Below the pieces are notes generated by a model. That model was not told the DNA's origin and searched no databases. It saw only the letters and a program-made list of their open reading frames with translations. DNA of 64,000 bases from Candidatus Aenigmatarchaeota archaeon (GTDB lineage: Archaea > Aenigmatarchaeota > Aenigmatarchaeia > QMZP01): contig JBDRSV010000005.1 in the NCBI GenBank assembly GCA_043824495.1, forward strand, positions 89,078 through 153,077, read 5' to 3'. Every line of letters begins with the position of its first letter. Within the stretch, counting starts at the first letter, position 1. Shown piece after piece: positions 4,837 to 31,822 of the stretch. The translations under genes were made by a program, and so were the position numbers.

Positions 4837-5361
4837 ATGCACAGAAATCCAAGAAAGGGTGCTGTAGGCATAATAATAATAGTGATTCTTCTAATAGGTG
4901 CAGCAGTTGTCGTCTACACGTTACCCGATGATACATTTAATGACCCTAATACTAATCCTAATCCTGAACAGTTCTATTACGAGGACTGTGGTTACATAGG
5001 TTCATCTCCTTGCGTGGATGATATTGGTCCATATTGTATTGAAGGAAATCTTGATTATAATGGAGAAAAGTGCGTAACAGCTGATTATAACAACAACCAA
5101 GAATACAATGACCCATATTATGATAATCCAAATAATGGTAATACAGGTTCTAATGGATATGATTCTGGTCAGAACACAGGCTCCAACACAGGAGCTGAAA
5201 ATTGTGGCTATCTGAATGAACCATGCTGTGAGGGAGAGTTCACAATAGACGAGTTCGGCATGCCAAGAGTTCCTCAATGGTGCTATGATGACCTTGAGTG
5301 TAGAGCAGAGATCTGTGTAGAAGGTCCTGGATACACATCTACCCCAAGACCAAATTATTAG
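4837..5361 (+). CDS. Cys-rich surface protein with class III-like signal
   Basis: RKG followed by hydrophobic stretch; two CGY..PC repeats. Confidence 0.6.
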   Translation: MHRNPRKGAVGIIIIVILLIGAAVVVYTLPDDTFNDPNTNPNPEQFYYEDCGYIGSSPCVDDIGPYCIEGNLDYNGEKCVTADYNNNQEYNDPYYDNPNNGNTGSNGYDSGQNTGSNTGAENCGYLNEPCCEGEFTIDEFGMPRVPQWCYDDLECRAEICVEGPGYTSTPRPNY

Positions 5362-5399
5362 GGGAAACACTTATATCGGGATCAAACCAACTATTTAAT

Positions 5400-5666
5400 A
5401 TGCTGGAAATATTCCTAGCAGGTTTCCTTGGTGGTGTAATAAGAGGACTTGTTGGAATATCCAAAGAAATTCGTTCTTCTCCAACTAAAAAGAAAAAACT
5501 CAGATTGGATTATTTTGTTGTAACTCTATTAGCTTCTGGAGGATTGGGTTTATTGGTTGGTGTTTTCATAGCAGATGATATACGTTTCGCTTTACTTGCT
5601 GGATATGCAGGAACAGATTTCTTAGAGAACCTATACAAGATTAAGATGAAGAAAAGGAATTGGTGA
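5400..5666 (+). CDS. Small membrane protein
   Basis: Hydrophobic Gly-rich helices, basic C-terminus. Confidence 0.6.
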   Translation: MLEIFLAGFLGGVIRGLVGISKEIRSSPTKKKKLRLDYFVVTLLASGGLGLLVGVFIADDIRFALLAGYAGTDFLENLYKIKMKKRNW

Positions 5667-5667
5667 T

Positions 5668-6162
5668 ATGAGACTAAGCTTACTCATATTAATTGTTTCA
5701 CTTCTTATTTTACCTTCTGTAAATGCCCATATAGAACAGTTATCTTCTACAATAGAAGGTGATTGCAGAGAATATAATGTAACTGTTGTTCCACATGGTT
5801 TTACTGAAAATTGTTACGATGTAAAAATAGATGTGACTAGCACGAGAGGTAGGGTTGGGGAGATATTTGATTCTAGAGAAGGATGGAAATCCTCTTTCTT
5901 TTATGTAAGTAATGATTTGTGTATATCAGATTCTGAAGTGTTTGAGAAGACGTATCAAGTAAGAGCAGATGACTCAGAAATACTGAATTTCAAAACAACA
6001 ATTAGATTTGGAGAGAAATTGTGGTCAACTGAGTATTATGAGATAACACAGGGTTGCCCTGAATTAGTTGAAGGAGACGATAAAGAATTCTGGATATCCA
6101 CAGGAATTGTTTTGATTGTTTTACTGGCGTCAATAGTTTATTATGTGAAATTAAGTGAATAG
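5668..6162 (+). CDS. Secreted protein with C-terminal membrane anchor
   Basis: Signal peptide plus C-terminal TM. Confidence 0.6.
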   Translation: MRLSLLILIVSLLILPSVNAHIEQLSSTIEGDCREYNVTVVPHGFTENCYDVKIDVTSTRGRVGEIFDSREGWKSSFFYVSNDLCISDSEVFEKTYQVRADDSEILNFKTTIRFGEKLWSTEYYEITQGCPELVEGDDKEFWISTGIVLIVLLASIVYYVKLSE

Positions 6163-14349: not shown

Positions 14350-15306
14350 ATGACACAAATACCCATAGAAAAAGAAGTAGAAGTAATAACAGAAGATGTC
14401 AAAAGTCCTACTATCAAAGACGAAGAAACAGACTATATGGTGCAGCTAAAAATAGCTCAAGCATATTATAAATTCAAAGGATATGAAGTCTTGTTAGGAC
14501 ATGATTTTGAAGAGAATTTAATTACTTTTGTATCACCTGAAGATTCAACTGATAGAATGCTTCTTGATGAATATACAAAAATCAAGTTATGGAAAAAGAA
14601 GAAAACACCAGAGATTGTGGAGTATTCACAGAGAATAATTGATGTTATAGGAGAAGAAAAAACAAAACAAATACTATTCATCTGTAGGTTATGCAGCTTC
14701 TTGGGAGGACCAGGATTCCCCGAAATCATTCTAATCAAAGACAATAAAATGGAACTGAGATTCATCAAAATAGATGATCTGTTAAAAGAGCAGAAATTCT
14801 TCAGTTTCTTTGTAAAGGACCTACTTCAAGTATGTGATATCAAAGTTAGTGAAGTGATACCAAACACTCTAATAAGAGAAGAAAAGAAAGCTTCCTGTAC
14901 AATAAAAGAGTTGCTAGAAGAAGGTAAATCAGGCGACAGAGCCGACATGTATCTCAAAGAATTAGACGAGCTTATAAAAAAAGAAGATAATGAAGATGAG
15001 AAAAAATACCTACAAGATCAGAGATATAATATTCCATTTTTTATGTTTGTCAAATGGTCTAATGATGGAAAAGTTGATTCAAAAGATATAGAAGAGCATT
15101 TCAAAAAAATAAATGAAATTGCAGAAAATAAAAGAAAAGATTTCATAAGATTTCATTCAGAAATAATAAAGGACGAAGAGTATATGAATTTGGGACCGAT
15201 GAGAGACAATAATACAATGAAAAAGAAAAAAGAGTATATTGAAAAGAAATTCAATCTAGGAGATACCAGAGCAAAGAATTTCTTGAAATTCATAACTTCG
15301 TTGTGA
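14350..15306 (+). CDS. Hypothetical protein with degenerate VRR-NUC/PD-(D/E)XK-like segment
   Basis: GFPEIILIKDNKMELRFIKIDDLLKEQ weakly resembles GxPDL..FxEVK..DxL..Q. Confidence 0.4.
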   Translation: MTQIPIEKEVEVITEDVKSPTIKDEETDYMVQLKIAQAYYKFKGYEVLLGHDFEENLITFVSPEDSTDRMLLDEYTKIKLWKKKKTPEIVEYSQRIIDVIGEEKTKQILFICRLCSFLGGPGFPEIILIKDNKMELRFIKIDDLLKEQKFFSFFVKDLLQVCDIKVSEVIPNTLIREEKKASCTIKELLEEGKSGDRADMYLKELDELIKKEDNEDEKKYLQDQRYNIPFFMFVKWSNDGKVDSKDIEEHFKKINEIAENKRKDFIRFHSEIIKDEEYMNLGPMRDNNTMKKKKEYIEKKFNLGDTRAKNFLKFITSL

Positions 15307-16019
15307 TGTATATGATACCTATTATTACTAAAGAACAGATGACAAAAATTGATGAATTGGCTGTGAAACATTTCGGCATAGAAATAATGCAGATGATGGA
15401 AATTGCTGGAAAAAACACAGCTGAAATGGCTAGAAAGATGCTCAAGAGAGTAAAAGGAAAAGAAATTGTTTGTCTTGCGGGAAAAGGAAATAATGGTGGA
15501 GATGCTTTAGTAGCTGCTAAATACTTAACCAATTGGGGTGCAAAAGTAACTGTGATAAATGTGAATCATCCAGATGAGATGAATCAATTAACCAAAGAAC
15601 AAAATGGAATTCTAAGATCAATGCATGTCAGCTTGCTTTACACAACAAATGTTATGGCTTTTGAGAAAATATTCAAAACAACTGATCTAATCATAGACGG
15701 CTTGTTAGGTTACAGTGTGAATGGAAATCCAAGAGGATTCTACGGAAAAGTAATAGAAATGGCTAATCATGTAAACAAGAAAATTTTGTCCATAGACATT
15801 CCTTCTGGTTTAGATCCAAACACGGGAGAAGCTTATGAACCTTGTATAAAAGCTAGCGTCACGCTATGCCTCACACTGCCTAAGAAAGGTTGTGTGGAAA
15901 ACAAGAAATTTGCAGGCGATATCTACGTAGCTGACATGGGAATACCGAATGAAGTTTATGAACTCATGGGATTACATGTGGGTCCAATATTCCAAGAAAA
16001 GGATATAATTAAACTGTAG
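15303..16019 (+). CDS. nnrE: NAD(P)H-hydrate epimerase
   Basis: LAGKGNNGGDALVAAKYL, LIIDGLLG, LSIDIPSG, IYVADMGIP. Confidence 0.93.
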   Translation: MMYMIPIITKEQMTKIDELAVKHFGIEIMQMMEIAGKNTAEMARKMLKRVKGKEIVCLAGKGNNGGDALVAAKYLTNWGAKVTVINVNHPDEMNQLTKEQNGILRSMHVSLLYTTNVMAFEKIFKTTDLIIDGLLGYSVNGNPRGFYGKVIEMANHVNKKILSIDIPSGLDPNTGEAYEPCIKASVTLCLTLPKKGCVENKKFAGDIYVADMGIPNEVYELMGLHVGPIFQEKDIIKL

Positions 16020-16651
16020 AAAAATCTGGTATTAAATCCCCTGAAGATTCGACTCCATAATTTTTTTTTAATATTTTTCTCATTTTTTTTCCGTGCTTCA
16101 CTTAAGTGAGCTCTGTAAGTACTTGGATGAAGTTCCATTATTTTAGCAGCTGTGTACCCATCATGACCCTCTACGTAAGAAAGTATAACTGTCGTCCTTT
16201 GCAATGTTGTCAATTGATCTAATGCCTGATCAAGAATACTCCCAGCTCTCGATATTGCATGAATTAATTCAGGATTGCCACTGAAATCCGCCACGTCAAT
16301 TAATACTTCTTCTCCGTTACTACATCTTATATAAGGATCATTTCCTATTGTTCTTCTTGTTACCGAATTGTTCTTTCTTAGCTGGTCTATGGCTGGGTTA
16401 ACTACTACTCTATGAAACCAGCCCGAAAAACTTCTAGAGGGATCATATCCACCAGATATAGCAGCATCATAAAGATGAGTTAAACCATTTGCAACAGCGT
16501 CTTCTATATCAAAAGATACGAGACCAATTCTACTTCCAATACCTGCCATGTATGGTCTAACAGATCTCTCAAAATCTAACCAATCTGAGTTAATCCCTGT
16601 GCTAGCAAATGTTAAGTATAATTCTCTTTGGTGTTTAAGGTCTGTAGCCAT
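15956..16651 (-). CDS. Divergent ECF (sigma-70 group 4) sigma factor
   Basis: Region 2 EDAVANG..YDPSRSFSGWFHRVVVNPAIDQLRK; region 4 LDQLTTLQRTTVILSYVEG..AAKIMELHPSTYRAHLSEARKK; TTTAAATA box about 30 bp upstream. Confidence 0.75.
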   Translation of the reverse strand: MATDLKHQRELYLTFASTGINSDWLDFERSVRPYMAGIGSRIGLVSFDIEDAVANGLTHLYDAAISGGYDPSRSFSGWFHRVVVNPAIDQLRKNNSVTRRTIGNDPYIRCSNGEEVLIDVADFSGNPELIHAISRAGSILDQALDQLTTLQRTTVILSYVEGHDGYTAAKIMELHPSTYRAHLSEARKKNEKNIKKKLWSRIFRGFNTRFFYSLIISFSWNIGPTCNPMSS

Positions 16652-16745
16652 AGTGGTCTTTTACGTTAATAGTATTTAAATGACTACTAAAAGATCACAT
16701 AAACAAACAAAAATAGCATAGGTCCTTCAAGCTTATTGCCTGTGT

Positions 16746-17381
16746 TTAAATCCATGTCTTCCTCTGAACAAAATCTGCACGGGATCGCATTTCTGTTTCA
16801 TATTTCTTAAGACCTCTTTTCATTAGTTCTCTAGCTCTAAATATTCTAGCCTTTACTGTTCCAATTGGATCACCAAGTATATCTGCTATATCTTCATAAG
16901 AAAACCCTTCAACATCACGTAATACAGTTACTCGTTTGTGAGTGGGTTTCATACTAGCGATAGTTGTTTCTAACTCGTATCTTAATTTAGATCTTAAGAA
17001 ATCTGCTCCAGGGTCATTTGAAGTATCCGGTATCTGAAAACCCACATTTCCATCTGCTGTTGGAATTGGTTTGTCTATTTGGAAAGCATGATCTTCTATT
17101 CTCTTTTTTCTTAAATAATCTATAGCTATATTTGATGCTACTTTGTACATCCATGTACCGAAACTGGTTGTATTACCATCATCAAGCTCGGCTTTATAAT
17201 CTGATTCTCTTCCAGTGACTCTCCACGCTCTCATGTATACGTCTTGAACAAGCTCTTCTACTACGCTTGGATTTCTAATAACCTTGAAAATGGAACGATA
17301 AATTTTTTGCCTGCCCTTCCTACCAAAATCTATTAAAAGTTGTTCTTTTCCTTCAGGAGTACCGTCGTAATCTATATCCAT
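16746..17381 (-). CDS. ECF RNA polymerase sigma factor (RpoE/SigW-like)
   Basis: EELVQDVYMRAW, SFGTWMYKVASNIAIDYLRKK, VLRDVEGFSYEDIADILGDPIGTVKARIFRARE. Confidence 0.93.
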   Translation of the reverse strand: MDIDYDGTPEGKEQLLIDFGRKGRQKIYRSIFKVIRNPSVVEELVQDVYMRAWRVTGRESDYKAELDDGNTTSFGTWMYKVASNIAIDYLRKKRIEDHAFQIDKPIPTADGNVGFQIPDTSNDPGADFLRSKLRYELETTIASMKPTHKRVTVLRDVEGFSYEDIADILGDPIGTVKARIFRARELMKRGLKKYETEMRSRADFVQRKTWI

Positions 17382-17415
17382 GCAACGTACTTACTACTAA
17401 GAATTAAATACTTCT

Positions 17416-17727
17416 CTACATAAACAAACAAGCGTAGTCTAGGTCTTTTAGTGCGTCCATTAGATTCATTGGATCAGCTGGACCATATGCACTGCTTTCT
17501 CCGTGGAATTTGAGTGTCTTCTCCTCTTTGTTGACTGTACAGTAGCCTCCACTTACTTGGAGATCGCCTTTGCTAAGTTTAGATTTCTCAATGAATTTAT
17601 CCAGAATATCATTATGATATCCGTCCTTAGAACCAAATCTTACGTATAGCTGTCCTTCTACATATACCAAAATAAATTTATATTCACCGTTTTCTTCAGG
17701 GAGAATTACTTTATCCATCTTCTTCAA
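17416..17727 (-). CDS. Janus/Ocnus (PHPT1-like) phosphohistidine phosphatase homolog
   Basis: GEYKFILVYV..VRFG..YHNDILDK..GGYC..KTLKFHGESSAYGPAD parallels PHPT1 GVFKYVLIRV..VRG..YHADIYDK..GGGRI..KKIHVYGYSMAYGPA. Confidence 0.7.
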   Translation of the reverse strand: MKKMDKVILPEENGEYKFILVYVEGQLYVRFGSKDGYHNDILDKFIEKSKLSKGDLQVSGGYCTVNKEEKTLKFHGESSAYGPADPMNLMDALKDLDYACLFM

Positions 17728-18034
17728 CTAATTCAAATCCTCTATAATCAACAGAAGCTACTATGGGATAGTCTGACATGGTGTCTATTATCTGACTACT
17801 GGTATTGTCTACGTCATCTCTGAAAGATCTACGATTGATAGTGACATTATAACTGTGTAATGAAGCTGGTGCCCGCATCAAAGTAAAGCCTACTCTTTCA
17901 TTCCCGTAGTTTTCAGTAAGAGCTTTTCTCAGTGGTATTCTTGCACCAAGAGGAACTACTACAATGTCTGGATTAATAATTATCTTTAATCTGAATTTGT
18001 ATAAGTTACTTTCTGGTCCACCTGTATCTCCCAT
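17711..18034 (-). CDS. Hypothetical protein
   Basis: 107-aa ORF after GGTGA, overlapping the next gene. Confidence 0.55.
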   Translation of the reverse strand: MGDTGGPESNLYKFRLKIIINPDIVVVPLGARIPLRKALTENYGNERVGFTLMRAPASLHSYNVTINRRSFRDDVDNTSSQIIDTMSDYPIVASVDYRGFELVEEDG

Positions 18035-18123
18035 AATATCACCTTGTATAGTCTTGATTGAAAAATATAAATATCTCTAGTCAGTTAAAAAATGAGAAAA
18101 AGGATAAAGGGGTGAAGACCCGT

Positions 18124-19392
18124 CTAAGCCTTCACCAAATCTATGATTATTCCAGCTGCTACTGTCTTACCCATGTCTCTTATAGCAAACTTTGCTAATT
18201 GTGGGAAGTCAGCCTGCTTTTCAACTGATACTGGTTGTGTTGGAACAACTCTGATAACAGCTGCGTCACCAGATCTCAATGTGTCTGGATTCTCTGCGAT
18301 TGTTTCTCCAGTTTTAGGGTCTATTTTCTTTATAATTTCTACGATTTTACATGCAACATGTGCTGTATGCATGTGGAATACAGGTGTGTATCCTTTTGTG
18401 ACCACAGTTGGGTGCTCCAAGACAATTATTTGTCCTGTGAATTCTTTTGCGATTGTTGGAGGGTTTGTTGTATGTCCTACTACGTCACCCTTCTTGATGT
18501 CTTTCTTTCCTGCACCTCTGACATTGAATCCGATGTTATCACCAGGTCCTGCTTTAGCAAGCTGCTTGTGATGCATTTCAATTGATTTAATTTCAGCTAG
18601 CGTTCCGCTTGGGTTAAATATAACCTTATCTCCTGGTTTCATCACTCCTGTCTCAATTCTACCTACTGGAACTGCACCAACACCTGTGATGTTGTACACA
18701 TCCTGAATAGGCATTCTTAGTGGCTTATCTACTGGTTTTTCTGGAGCCACGATTGTTGCGTCAAGAGTTGCTACTAAAGTATCACCTTTGTACCAAGCCA
18801 TCTTGTCAGATTTTTTGACTACGTTGTCTCCTATCCATGCTGAAACTGGCACGAAAGGAATCTTGCTTACGTCATAACCGACACTTTGTAGAAGCTTTGT
18901 TACTTCTTCTTTTACTTTGTTGAATTTAGCTTCTTCGTATCCTATAGCATCCATCTTGTTAATAGCAACTACGATTTGCTTAATTCCAAGAACCTTTGAT
19001 AGGTATACGTGTTCTTTTGTTTGCTCTTGAATGCTGTCTTTTACAGATACAATCAAGATAGCCGCATCTGCTTGTGATGCGCCAGTAATCATATTCTTAA
19101 TAAAGTCCTTGTGACCAGGCACATCGATAATTGTATAATAATTCTTGTTTGTTTCGAATCCCTTATACATAAGATCTATTGTAAGACCTCTTTCTCTTTC
19201 TTCCTTTAGATTATCCATCACGAAAGCGAATTCGAATGTCTCTTTTTTCAATTCTTTTGCCTTTTCTTTTAATTTTCTTAATTCTTGTTCTGTGAGTACT
19301 CCAGAATCAAAGAACAATCTACCAATAAGTGTAGATTTTCCGTGGTCTACGTGACCTGAAGTTATCAAGTTTATATGTGGTTTTTCAGCCAT
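18124..19392 (-). CDS. tuf: Translation elongation factor EF-1alpha
   Basis: [40 protein letters not shown]. Confidence 0.98.
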
Positions 19393-19541
19393 ATCCTAAT
19401 CCTCCGAGTTTTATCATCTTAAATGAGCATGAGCTCAAGATGTTTATCTATGTAATTATTGATTTAAATACTTTACACTGTGTATTATGCTATATAACCA
19501 GTCTTTATAAAGGTTATGTATGTCTCTATCAATCGGTTTTA

Positions 19542-29438: not shown

Positions 29439-29902
29439 ATAATCGTTCCTTTAGCATGTATTACTCAACCTCGTTTATAAGGAACTCCTAAAGAATAATT
29501 TTTATAAAAATATTTTTTTATTTGTCTCATGCTGGTTTTTGTCTAAATATTTTGAAAAATAGAGGTTTGTTAAGGTATTTATTTTTAACTATTATCAAAT
29601 AGTTATAACATTTCATTGAATCATACTCTCTACCAAATAAATAAAATTTACATATAACTCCAATTCAAGCACAGCTTGTTTTTGGTAACATCCTCATGGA
29701 GTCATGTGTGATATACACTTGCTAAATTGTCTCATATAAGCGAGAAAAAGCATGATGTACAGTGGTAGAGGAACGAACGTTGAAGTCTTTTTCTGAGCAC
29801 CGCTTTTAAGTCTTGGGTAGTCTTAAAATCAAGACTTTTGTTATAAACAGCTGACTTTCGAAATCTAACATAGTTTGTAAACAGGAAGCGAGGGTCTGAG
29901 TC

Positions 29903-31822
29903 ATGAGCGTTTTAGAACAGCTCCTCTTACTCATGCCAAGGGGGGAAGGGGTCTTAGAAGCAAACGCACTGGATGCTCTTTTAAACTGTCCTAAAGCATG
30001 GGCAATTTTTACCAGTGCTAAGAAGGCAGGAAGCCTTGGGGGTGAACAGCTAACTGAAATTGTAGTTGCAGTCGCGGAAAAACATAGGATTTCACCCGGT
30101 GTTCTGGAAGGAGCTTTGGATGATCTTCTTGGAATCCGTGCCTGTCTACTACACACATCAAAGCATCCGACTCTAGGGTATGTATTACCAACGGATGCTG
30201 CACTAGTAGAAGATGCTGGAGAGACAACTGGATCACTGGTTGGTGTAGATGGGTCCGACGACGAAACATTACCTATCGACTTGTTTGATGGAGTGTATAA
30301 GACTCTCCTCGCCCAGTTCGATTCGGCAGGACATCTGAAGCAATGGCTCGATGGAATCTTCAAACGAGGAGAGCACGACTATGGAAGAGTGGTCACGGTT
30401 ATGCTTGATGAGTACGGGGTCCAACTCATGGAAGCCATCAAGCAACTCGGTCACACTCTTTCAACTCGTCATGATCATTCCCTGGAGGACAATGATCCCT
30501 TGTGGGCCGGTGCTGTGGAATATTGGCTCACGAGCGATAAATATCTCGAGGGTGTTCCGCTTCCTGACGATGAAGCAGGACAGCTCAAACCTACTGTTGG
30601 ATTCAAGGGGAGTAAGATCAGACAGTTCTGCGCTCTTGATCGGTTCCCAACCAATTCTGCGGCCAAGGAGGAGTTCCTCAGACTCTTGGCCGCGTGTGGG
30701 GGAAGCCTTGAGAAGTTACGTAAGCAGCTACCCTCAGAAGTTCCTGAAGTCTTCTCTGGTGTTCCAGCATGGACAACTGTGGATGGTATGAAGAGGGGAT
30801 TCGAGAACAAGAGTGACTTCCCAGATGACGGCTCAAACGGCGGTATCGGCGGCGCAGGTAACAATCCTGGTGGAGCAGATCCTGGCGGCGATCCGGATTA
30901 CGATGCGATGTATACATCCTTCTTGACATGCTTTGCATCAGCATCTCACGCCAAGAAATCGGTGATGGATCTCCTACGGGACGAATGCGGTGGCGATGAC
31001 TTTGCAAGACTCGCTACCATACTCTACGAACGATTTACAAATTCAAGAAAGAAACCGTTCGGAGATAGTCTTCTACCACCAGATGTCATGCAGGACTGGG
31101 TGGAGAACAAGGAGAAGCTCGCCGGCGTTGAAGATCTCGATGACGACGGAGCTGGCGACAAGAAGAACGGTGGTGATTCTGCTGATGAACTCTCGGATGA
31201 GGATGTGTTCCCACCTCACGATCCTGAGACATTCGACCGTGACGAACTTACTTATCCCGAGAAAGCTATGTGGAGATTCATATGCCACTGTGGCGGACCT
31301 AAGAGAGCGCATCATATTCTCTTTGACTTAGTTTCCGAACATGGTGGAAATTGGGACTCTGTTTTGAAAGCTCTCAGGGAGTCTAGACCGAGTGTCTTCA
31401 GGGCGCTACGTAACCAAGGAAGCACAATTACTGGACAACATCTTATAGTCTGGGATCAGAAAATACAGAATAATAATCCAGATGAGATGCCACCAGAGTA
31501 CCACAATCTATCCGACATACATCAGCTACTGTCTACAGTGACTGTGAATAAGTTGGATGATATTCTCAATACAGAAGACATCGATGGTGTTCAGTTCTTG
31601 AGAAAACTCACTGACGAAATCACATCAATTGAAGTTCAACTGGAGGACGATTTTCAGAACGTTTCAGATGCCTTCGATTTCCTCGAAGGTCCTGAGGAAG
31701 ATGGTGCCGAAAAACAACCAGATGAAGCTGCTGCGGAGAAACTTGGTGTAAAACTTCGGATGTATCTGGAATGTAAGAAGATTATCATCAGTGAATCAAA
31801 ACCATTGGATCATGTTGTATAA
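29903..31822 (+). CDS. Hypothetical 639-aa protein with repeated helical module (island 2)
   Basis: Recurring xxCGG..L..L....P.VF units separated by acidic/Gly linkers. Confidence 0.75.
   Translation: MSVLEQLLLLMPRGEGVLEANALDALLNCPKAWAIFTSAKKAGSLGGEQLTEIVVAVAEKHRISPGVLEGALDDLLGIRACLLHTSKHPTLGYVLPTDAALVEDAGETTGSLVGVDGSDDETLPIDLFDGVYKTLLAQFDSAGHLKQWLDGIFKRGEHDYGRVVTVMLDEYGVQLMEAIKQLGHTLSTRHDHSLEDNDPLWAGAVEYWLTSDKYLEGVPLPDDEAGQLKPTVGFKGSKIRQFCALDRFPTNSAAKEEFLRLLAACGGSLEKLRKQLPSEVPEVFSGVPAWTTVDGMKRGFENKSDFPDDGSNGGIGGAGNNPGGADPGGDPDYDAMYTSFLTCFASASHAKKSVMDLLRDECGGDDFARLATILYERFTNSRKKPFGDSLLPPDVMQDWVENKEKLAGVEDLDDDGAGDKKNGGDSADELSDEDVFPPHDPETFDRDELTYPEKAMWRFICHCGGPKRAHHILFDLVSEHGGNWDSVLKALRESRPSVFRALRNQGSTITGQHLIVWDQKIQNNNPDEMPPEYHNLSDIHQLLSTVTVNKLDDILNTEDIDGVQFLRKLTDEITSIEVQLEDDFQNVSDAFDFLEGPEEDGAEKQPDEAAAEKLGVKLRMYLECKKIIISESKPLDHVV

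Follow-up and report, generated by a model that had tools for sequence, protein, structure and literature searches.

Old ECF-type sigma factor genes in a recurrent, hypervariable slot of an Aenigmatarchaeota chromosome

Sigma factors define transcription initiation in bacteria, and to our knowledge no role for them in archaea is accepted. What, then, are two sigma-70 genes doing side by side in the chromosome of an archaeon? The genes, here named sig1 and sig2, are in tandem on the minus strand of a 64,000-nucleotide (nt) stretch of Candidatus Aenigmatarchaeota DNA (hereafter, the window), which is part of a 153-kb contig in an assembly of 1.01 Mb that is 80% complete. We find that sig1 and sig2 are real sigma-70 genes of the extracytoplasmic function (ECF) type, of bacterial ancestry but long resident in an archaeal (DPANN) chromosome, and that they belong to a small array whose position is conserved in relatives. 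As to what their products do, the sequences point to sigma-derived proteins that the archaeon would make and employ in its own cell as accessory regulators that bind DNA, a reading that we regard as evenly poised between right and wrong. Coordinates of all features are given in Table 1.

Both proteins score above the cut-offs of the family models for sigma regions 2 and 4. Sigma70_r2 (Pfam, cut-off 24) gives 26.4 bits for sig1 and 37.5 bits for sig2, Sigma70_r4_2 (Pfam, cut-off 25.7) gives 38.9 and 45.2 bits, and the NCBIfam model TIGR02937 for sigma70-ECF (cut-off 42.9) gives 52.3 and 70.9 bits, with zero Pfam matches in either protein to region 1 or to region 3 (the sigma3 domain). AlphaFold2 models (mean pLDDT of 81 for sig1 and 83.5 for sig2) show two helical bundles joined by a linker of 25 to 30 residues. 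Among solved structures, the best Foldseek matches of the sig1 model are sigma factors only, with ECF factors first (Mycobacterium tuberculosis SigE, Escherichia coli sigmaE, AlgU, and SigW), and sig2 can be aligned over its full length to E. coli sigmaE, AlgU, and SigW (PDB 1or7, 6in7, and 5wuq) with E values of ∼1e-15. The sigma4 recognition helix of sig2 is GTVKARIFRARE, compared with GTVRSRIFRARE in sigmaE. The profile searches and the two-domain fold thus bear out the preliminary description of this DNA, made from its sequence, which had named two sigma-70 group 4 proteins with regions 2 and 4.

The two proteins are only 26% identical and differ in their affinities. The nearest relatives of sig2 among 5.8 billion proteins are bacterial ECFs of ∼190 amino acids (aa) with 46 to 49% identity, those with names being from Zixibacteria or Acidobacteriota, and a maximum-likelihood tree places sig2 as the sister of a Zixibacteria-type clade of RpoE-like proteins (SH-aLRT 88). 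For sig1, HMMER was run exhaustively against 1.84 billion representatives; the top relative has an E value of 3e-9 and is 29% identical, and the best match carrying an organism name is a Clostridia ECF. We therefore class sig1 as a predicted orphan ECF and sig2 as a predicted RpoE/AlgU/SigW-like ECF. A PhyR-type anti-anti-sigma identity was considered and rejected, as neither protein has a receiver domain by Pfam or NCBIfam; region 4 of sig1 has only a sub-threshold PhyR_sigma-like match (17 bits, cut-off 27). We note that sig1 ends in a 35-aa low-confidence tail and that its final 64 nt overlap the convergent yjeF_N. The sig1 coding sequence near positions 15956 to 16100 (minus strand) crosses A8 and A9 tracts, and the true C terminus may be different, with homopolymer slippage leading to an earlier stop.

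Comparison with relatives shows that the pair occupies a recurrent slot. We refer to this genome as G000, to a genome of the same genus as G001, and to two metagenome contigs of relatives as L061 and L064. In these four related sequences, a gene of the PHPT1/Janus family (PHPT1-like) is followed directly by one to three sigma genes, which are faced by yjeF_N, an arrangement not previously described. The contig L061 has the PHPT1-like gene (70% identical to that of G000), one sigma gene (196 aa), and a convergent yjeF_N (77%), and L064 has the PHPT1-like gene (40%), three tandem sigma genes, and a convergent yjeF_N (55%). In G001, EF-1alpha, a HAD hydrolase, and the PHPT1-like gene (36 to 37%) precede a sigma gene that is cut by the contig end, with yjeF_N (52%) located at another contig end; G001 thus has at least one copy, and seven copies were compared altogether. 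Such a slot, common to four related sequences, does not fit a single recent and non-expressed transfer, which had been named earlier as grounds for refuting the preliminary interpretation.

What fills the slot is far more variable than what borders it. Flanking genes are 70 to 77% identical between G000 and L061 and 36 to 55% identical for L064 and G001, and the sigma copies are mutually 21 to 34% identical; all seven score better with ordinary bacterial ECFs than with one another. All of the sigma open reading frames (ORFs) are intact except the third copy of L064 (positions 5351 to 6003), which is frameshifted between sigma2 and sigma4, through decay of the copy or through an error of assembly. 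In L064, in-register DNA repeats between the copies and codon sharing at p ∼0.02 to 0.03, uncorrected for multiple tests, hint weakly at duplication in place. A codon-identity test of orthology between genomes is uninformative, because the synonymous sites of yjeF_N itself are saturated already between G000 and L061. A maximum-likelihood tree of the seven copies is unresolved, and a single origin is not recovered, nor is it rejected by the approximately unbiased (AU) test (p = 0.24).

The constant neighbor in the slot is the PHPT1-like gene, a homologue of eukaryote-type PHPT1/Janus; a search of the phylum finds this family in 3 of its 301 genomes, and 14 control genomes yield no match. Four homologues all have the His of the Y-H-N/S-D motif, and it is possible that this phosphatase-like protein is a regulator of the sigma proteins. 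A general rule linking PHPT1 and sigma genes was considered and is not supported: the family is rare, and two further sequences (G027 and L065) have a PHPT1-like gene without an adjoining sigma gene. Where the two are linked, it is through a single arrangement that a small clade has inherited.

Both sigma genes have the composition of their host, with GC contents of 0.365 (sig1) and 0.362 (sig2) against a genome median of 0.356, and third-position GC contents (GC3) of 0.250 and 0.231 against a median of 0.268, as the earlier remark on backbone-like composition had it. The locus is anchored in an archaeal chromosome by EF-1alpha, full-length orthologues of which (69 to 85% identity) are present in 20 of 25 relatives searched. 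The genes are of bacterial type and a repeat lies between the two copies, as might be expected of contamination, mis-binning, or mis-assembly, whether through a bacterial contig or through two strain haplotypes wrongly joined in tandem. However, the EF-1alpha and yjeF_N flanks on the long contig, the same arrangement in three further assemblies, and the host-like GC3 exclude mis-binning. Moreover, an independent 38-kb Logan contig from the probable source run reproduces positions 15300 to 19400 without a difference, and the repeat copies have only 14 exact bases in common, too few to have misled the assembler. The prospect of an artefact is so slight as to be practically negligible.

Host-type promoters accompany these genes. 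In the 810 long ORFs of G000, TATA-like octamers cluster 27 to 32 nt 5′ of the ATG, a signature of leaderless transcription. When a 10-nt weight matrix, trained without the sigma genes, was used to find the best match within 100 nt upstream, those of sig1 and sig2 were both at the modal position, −31, with scores in the 79th and 94th percentiles of all genes, respectively. Only 0.5% (sig1) and 0.2% (sig2) of background positions score as high, and the TATA-like boxes noted earlier at about 30 bp before each ATG are thus well beyond chance. A TATA box is present at promoter distance before all seven sigma copies in G000, G001, L061, and L064.

The copies evolve very fast, and their conservation is uneven. 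Conservation of 70% or more in a set of 157 bacterial ECFs defines 27 alignment columns, of which the seven copies retain 59 to 67%; the bacterial median and 5th percentile are 85% and 67%. The sigma2 and sigma4 folds are kept, as are the Trp, Asn, and Arg residues of regions 2.3 and 2.4 (W77 and R91 in all seven copies, N84 in six) and, in most copies, the basic sigma4 recognition helix, in which Thr and one Arg are present in five of six copies and the other Arg in four of six. The Gln of region 2.2 (Q46), which from sigma70 genetics we take to be a contact with the beta′ clamp helices of core RNA polymerase (RNAP), is found in 90% of the bacterial ECFs but in only three of the seven copies. 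It is lost in sig1, where region 2.2 is D-A-V-A-N rather than the bacterial D-x-x-Q-E/D, and it is retained in sig2, where the region is E-L-V-Q-D. From its bacterial clade, sig2 has diverged evenly, with identities of 53% in sigma2, 56% in the linker, and 50% in sigma4.

Both sig1 and sig2 are old, as judged from saturated synonymous sites and fully host-like GC3, and at this composition ∼7% of random codons would be stops. Where genes are old and fully ameliorated, frames that stay open for more than 200 codons suggest selection against disruption. The genes thus appear to be old, expressed-looking residents under partial constraint, and not fresh contaminants.

The tandem arrangement has a history of its own. 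A 34-nt direct repeat precedes both sigma genes, with 27 of 34 positions identical (31 nt at 81%). Genome-wide, its 14-nt core turns up at these two positions and no others, and a reading of the second copy as a generic cassette-border box is rejected for that reason. Where sig1 and sig2 have identical amino acids, 15 of 44 codons are the same, compared with 18.1 expected, such that synonymous sites are saturated. Because the relic is still 79 to 81% identical, sig1 and sig2 must have split long before it was formed. Simple tandem duplication of sig2 to give sig1 was considered and is rejected on these grounds, and also because scattered bacterial ECFs give higher scores with sig1 than sig2 does. 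Probably two sigma genes of ancient divergence, possibly slot alleles from related strains, were brought together by illegitimate or unequal recombination in recent times, which would have left a 34-nt relic of the phosphatase-gene 3′ end between sig2 and sig1.

We looked for the partners with which a bacterial sigma factor would work. The neighboring genes (PHPT1-like, a probable aEF-1beta, EF-1alpha, and YjeF_N) carry no anti-sigma domain, in keeping with the prior observation that none is adjacent, and neither zf-HC2 nor DUF4097 is found in the whole 80%-complete assembly. Many, although not all, ECF sigma genes come with such a partner. The C-terminal domain of bacterial RNAP alpha is likewise not found in the genome. 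Two full TBP genes and one half-length match are present in G000, and TFB (PF00382) is not found in the assembly, either with the family model or with the TFB protein of G001 as a query. The missing TFB is most likely an assembly gap, since the genes flanking TFB in G001 are also missing from G000 and 29 of 30 relatives have TFB. For the same reasons, the idea that the sigma proteins compensate for TFB loss is unsupported.

Nor do we find promoters of the sigmaE type. There are seven sigmaE-type motifs (GGAAC-N15-18-TCNNA) in the window, compared with 8.8 expected; a genome-wide excess over mononucleotide shuffles vanishes on a spacing test, spacers of 15 to 18 nt not being preferred, and the motif GAAAC-N16-CGTA, read upstream of the Zixibacteria-type homologue, is not enriched. 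We note one match, GGAAC-N17-TCTGA at positions 29770 to 29796 (plus strand), located 107 nt before the first ORF (29903 to 31822) of a GC-rich island. The match was scored against what we take to be the E. coli sigmaE promoter consensus, and it may be the island's native bacterial promoter. The other island leaders lack it.

How are these proteins used, if at all? In the reading as accessory regulators, the sigma pair would be two members of a lineage-specific birth-and-death array in one slot. The archaeal machinery would transcribe the copies as leaderless or short-leader mRNAs, and the proteins would act in the archaeal cell. They are most likely no longer bacterial initiation factors. Probably they bind specific DNA sequences as regulators that the cell can do without, and they may still contact the conserved RNAP clamp. 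The suggestion that the pair are repurposed DNA-binding proteins fits these findings: both genes have long been resident, their composition and promoters are those of the host, and the fold and the sigma4 helix are kept while conservation elsewhere is relaxed, with DNA binding as a candidate function. Several observations weigh against this reading. In the absence of RNAP, full-length ECF sigmas are usually poor DNA binders, such that a stand-alone regulatory role is not a given. The region 2.2 Gln and the linker of sig2 are kept as well as its folded domains, as would be expected of a protein that continues to thread into an RNA polymerase. Near-neutral decay would also account for the fast divergence and the one frameshifted copy, and, with the tree of the copies unresolved, fast divergence of one old import is indistinguishable from repeated replacement. 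In addition, no RNA run is listed as containing the locus, which bears on expression of the sigma genes; two metatranscriptome runs from one study have 31-letter pieces matching an A-rich, low-complexity segment (16060 to 16091) and short EF-1alpha pieces, and are uninformative.

The accessory-regulator reading has to be set against several others, of which near-neutral baggage is the most serious. Here, bacterial ECF genes would be imported repeatedly, pick up host promoters accidentally given the AT-richness of the genome, and then drift and disappear without ever having a function. No copy exceeds the 5th percentile of conservation among bacterial ECFs, one is frameshifted, copy number varies from one to three, most relatives (255 of the 301 genomes of the phylum) lack Sigma70_r2 matches, and sig1 has no relative closer than 29% identity; the genome also demonstrably imports bacterial genes, including a GC-rich FliA-type sigma gene. 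However, old frames of 211 and 231 codons do not stay open by chance, the TATA boxes are at promoter distance in seven of seven copies, the slot persists across relatives whose YjeF_N proteins are only 52 to 77% identical, and fold residues are retained with confident AlphaFold2 models. We consider baggage unlikely, although far from negligible. A different possibility is that the archaeal RNAP uses the proteins as alternative factors for initiation or specificity, with sigma2 on the Rpo1 clamp coiled-coil and sigma4 reading a promoter-proximal element, beside or replacing TFB or TFE at some promoters. The clamp coiled-coil is common to all multisubunit RNAPs, an archaeal RNAP is the only one in view in G000, and sig2 retains the region 2.2 Gln, the signature of regions 2.3 and 2.4, the linker, and the −35 helix. 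A bipartite sigma-type promoter signal is not found in the genome, though, the Gln is lost in four of seven copies, relatives have an ordinary TBP/TFB system, and sequences this variable fit poorly with a fixed protein interface to a conserved polymerase, making this role improbable. More doubtful still is a fully hybrid bacterial/archaeal initiation system, in which a rapidly diversifying array of sigma proteins would dock on the archaeal RNAP clamp as interchangeable specificity factors that work alongside TBP and TFB and that the PHPT1-like protein might switch.

The preliminary description had also proposed exported effectors that redirect the RNAP of a bacterial host, possibly to island promoters, and in a broader form the proteins could be effectors or mimics acting against a bacterial partner's RNAP, with their diversification reflecting an arms race with the host. 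Zixibacteria names among the nearest relatives of sig2, its nearly sigmaE-like −35 helix with retained Gln and linker, and a hypervariable multicopy array of the kind typical of conflict genes are all consistent with this. But both N termini are polar, with no signal-peptide-like stretch or known export tag when read by eye, the slot is without secretion genes, the Gln is lost in sig1 and most copies, and nothing indicates a bacterial host for this archaeon. We find no positive support for export, and the effector role is highly improbable. Redirection to island promoters fares no better, as sigmaE-type motifs are at chance level without a preferred spacing, and the lone match before an island is not shared by the others.

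DPANN sigma-70 genes without anti-sigma factors have been reported before, with the mechanism left open (Castelle et al. 2021, family fam00359; PMC8204110). That report and the present locus are alike in having bacterial-class genes, archaeal neighbors as validation, no anti-sigma, and a TBP system, but the former stresses Woesearchaeota and gives no locus anatomy, whereas the array described here is in Aenigmatarchaeota. The new anatomy is that of a syntenic, hypervariable array of one to three copies beside a constant PHPT1-like gene, with a promoter for each copy, a quantified relaxation of bacterial constraints, and a recombination relic.

Comparison with bacterial ECFs is similarly mixed. 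The sigma2-linker-sigma4 architecture is that of RpoE, AlgU, and SigW (PDB 1or7, 6in7, 5wuq, and 6jbq), which the sig1 model matches, but a bacterial core RNAP, an anti-sigma, and an autoregulated ECF-type promoter are not found in this archaeon; archaeal TATA boxes are present instead, and sig1 lacks the region 2.2 Gln. The closest relative of sig2 is encoded in a Zixibacteria-type ECF operon (P0002), as a sigma factor with 46 to 49% identity across 81% of sig2, followed by a 362-aa DUF4097 protein (likely an anti-sigma or sensor) and a 457-aa protein, neither of which is in the archaeon. Measured against that protein, the N terminus of sig2 has diverged, its C terminus is longer by 19 aa, and 9 aa are inserted after region 2.2.

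Signaling to an ECF through phosphorylation has a possible parallel. The Vibrio EcfP/PknT system is said to comprise an ECF with a degenerate region 2.2 and no anti-sigma, in which a Ser/Thr kinase activates binding to the bacterial core RNAP. It resembles our array in having a phospho-signaling neighbor, although here the neighbor is phosphohistidine-phosphatase-like, a kinase is not in evidence, and a bacterial core is lacking. The locus is a compact test case, with a fixed slot, one to three very different copies, an archaeal promoter for each, and a constant PHPT1-like neighbor, and it offers two contrasting candidate proteins, sig2 with the presumed core-docking residue and sig1 without it. 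If the sigma proteins are plain regulators or drifting imports, this is a minor matter; if they do touch the archaeal polymerase, it bears on the relation between the two initiation systems.

Table 1. Features of the sig1-sig2 locus and its context genes (window coordinates)
Feature	Position	Strand	Basis or remark
sig2, RpoE/AlgU/SigW-like ECF sigma gene (predicted), 211 aa	16746..17381	-	Pfam and NCBIfam, AlphaFold2
TATA box of sig2 (TATTTAAT)	17403..17410	-	begins 29 nt upstream of ATG
sig1, orphan ECF-like sigma gene (predicted), 231 aa	15956..16651	-	Pfam and NCBIfam, AlphaFold2
TATA box of sig1 (TTTAAATA)	16673..16680	-	begins 29 nt upstream of ATG
34-nt repeat, copy 1, last codons and stop of PHPT1-like gene	17417..17450	-	sequence comparison
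34-nt repeat, copy 2, non-coding relic of PHPT1-like 3′ end	16696..16729	-	between sig2 and sig1
PHPT1/Janus-family (phosphohistidine-phosphatase-like) gene	17416..17727	-	Pfam Ocnus, E 2.5e-10; likely start ATG 17718
yjeF_N (NAD(P)HX epimerase domain), convergent with sig1	15303..16019	+	Pfam YjeF_N, E 9e-46
107-aa ORF, probably divergent aEF-1beta	17711..18034	-	structural neighbor; context gene
EF-1alpha (archaeal)	18124..19392	-	Pfam matches; context gene

Upstream of the PHPT1-like gene, the 107-aa ORF comes after EF-1alpha and is translationally coupled, its stop overlapping the PHPT1-like start. It is without a Pfam or NCBIfam match, but its nearest Atlas structural neighbor is of the archaeal EF-1beta family (TM 0.65/0.75), and it is probably, from its predicted structure, a divergent aEF-1beta. 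Its position is taken by different genes in G001, L061, and L064.

Outside the window but on the same contig, a third sigma gene (G000:C5:21477-22307; L005 1366-2196) is of FliA/WhiG type, matching TIGR02479 with 234 bits. It has a GC content of 0.50, forms a one-gene GC-rich island, and has a bacterial-style ribosome-binding site (GGGGGTGA). In contrast to sig1 and sig2, this gene looks like a recent import.

Sigma70_r2 matches are found in 46 of the 301 genomes of the phylum. Other genomes code for RpoD-like sigma proteins with regions 1.2, 2, (3), and 4, as in L030 (G015:C76), L022 (G228:C17), L013 (G011:C20), and L020 (G027:C1). Some of these genes are in tandem (two or three copies), and some lie in open frames of 500 to 840 aa, which suggests that they are fusions.

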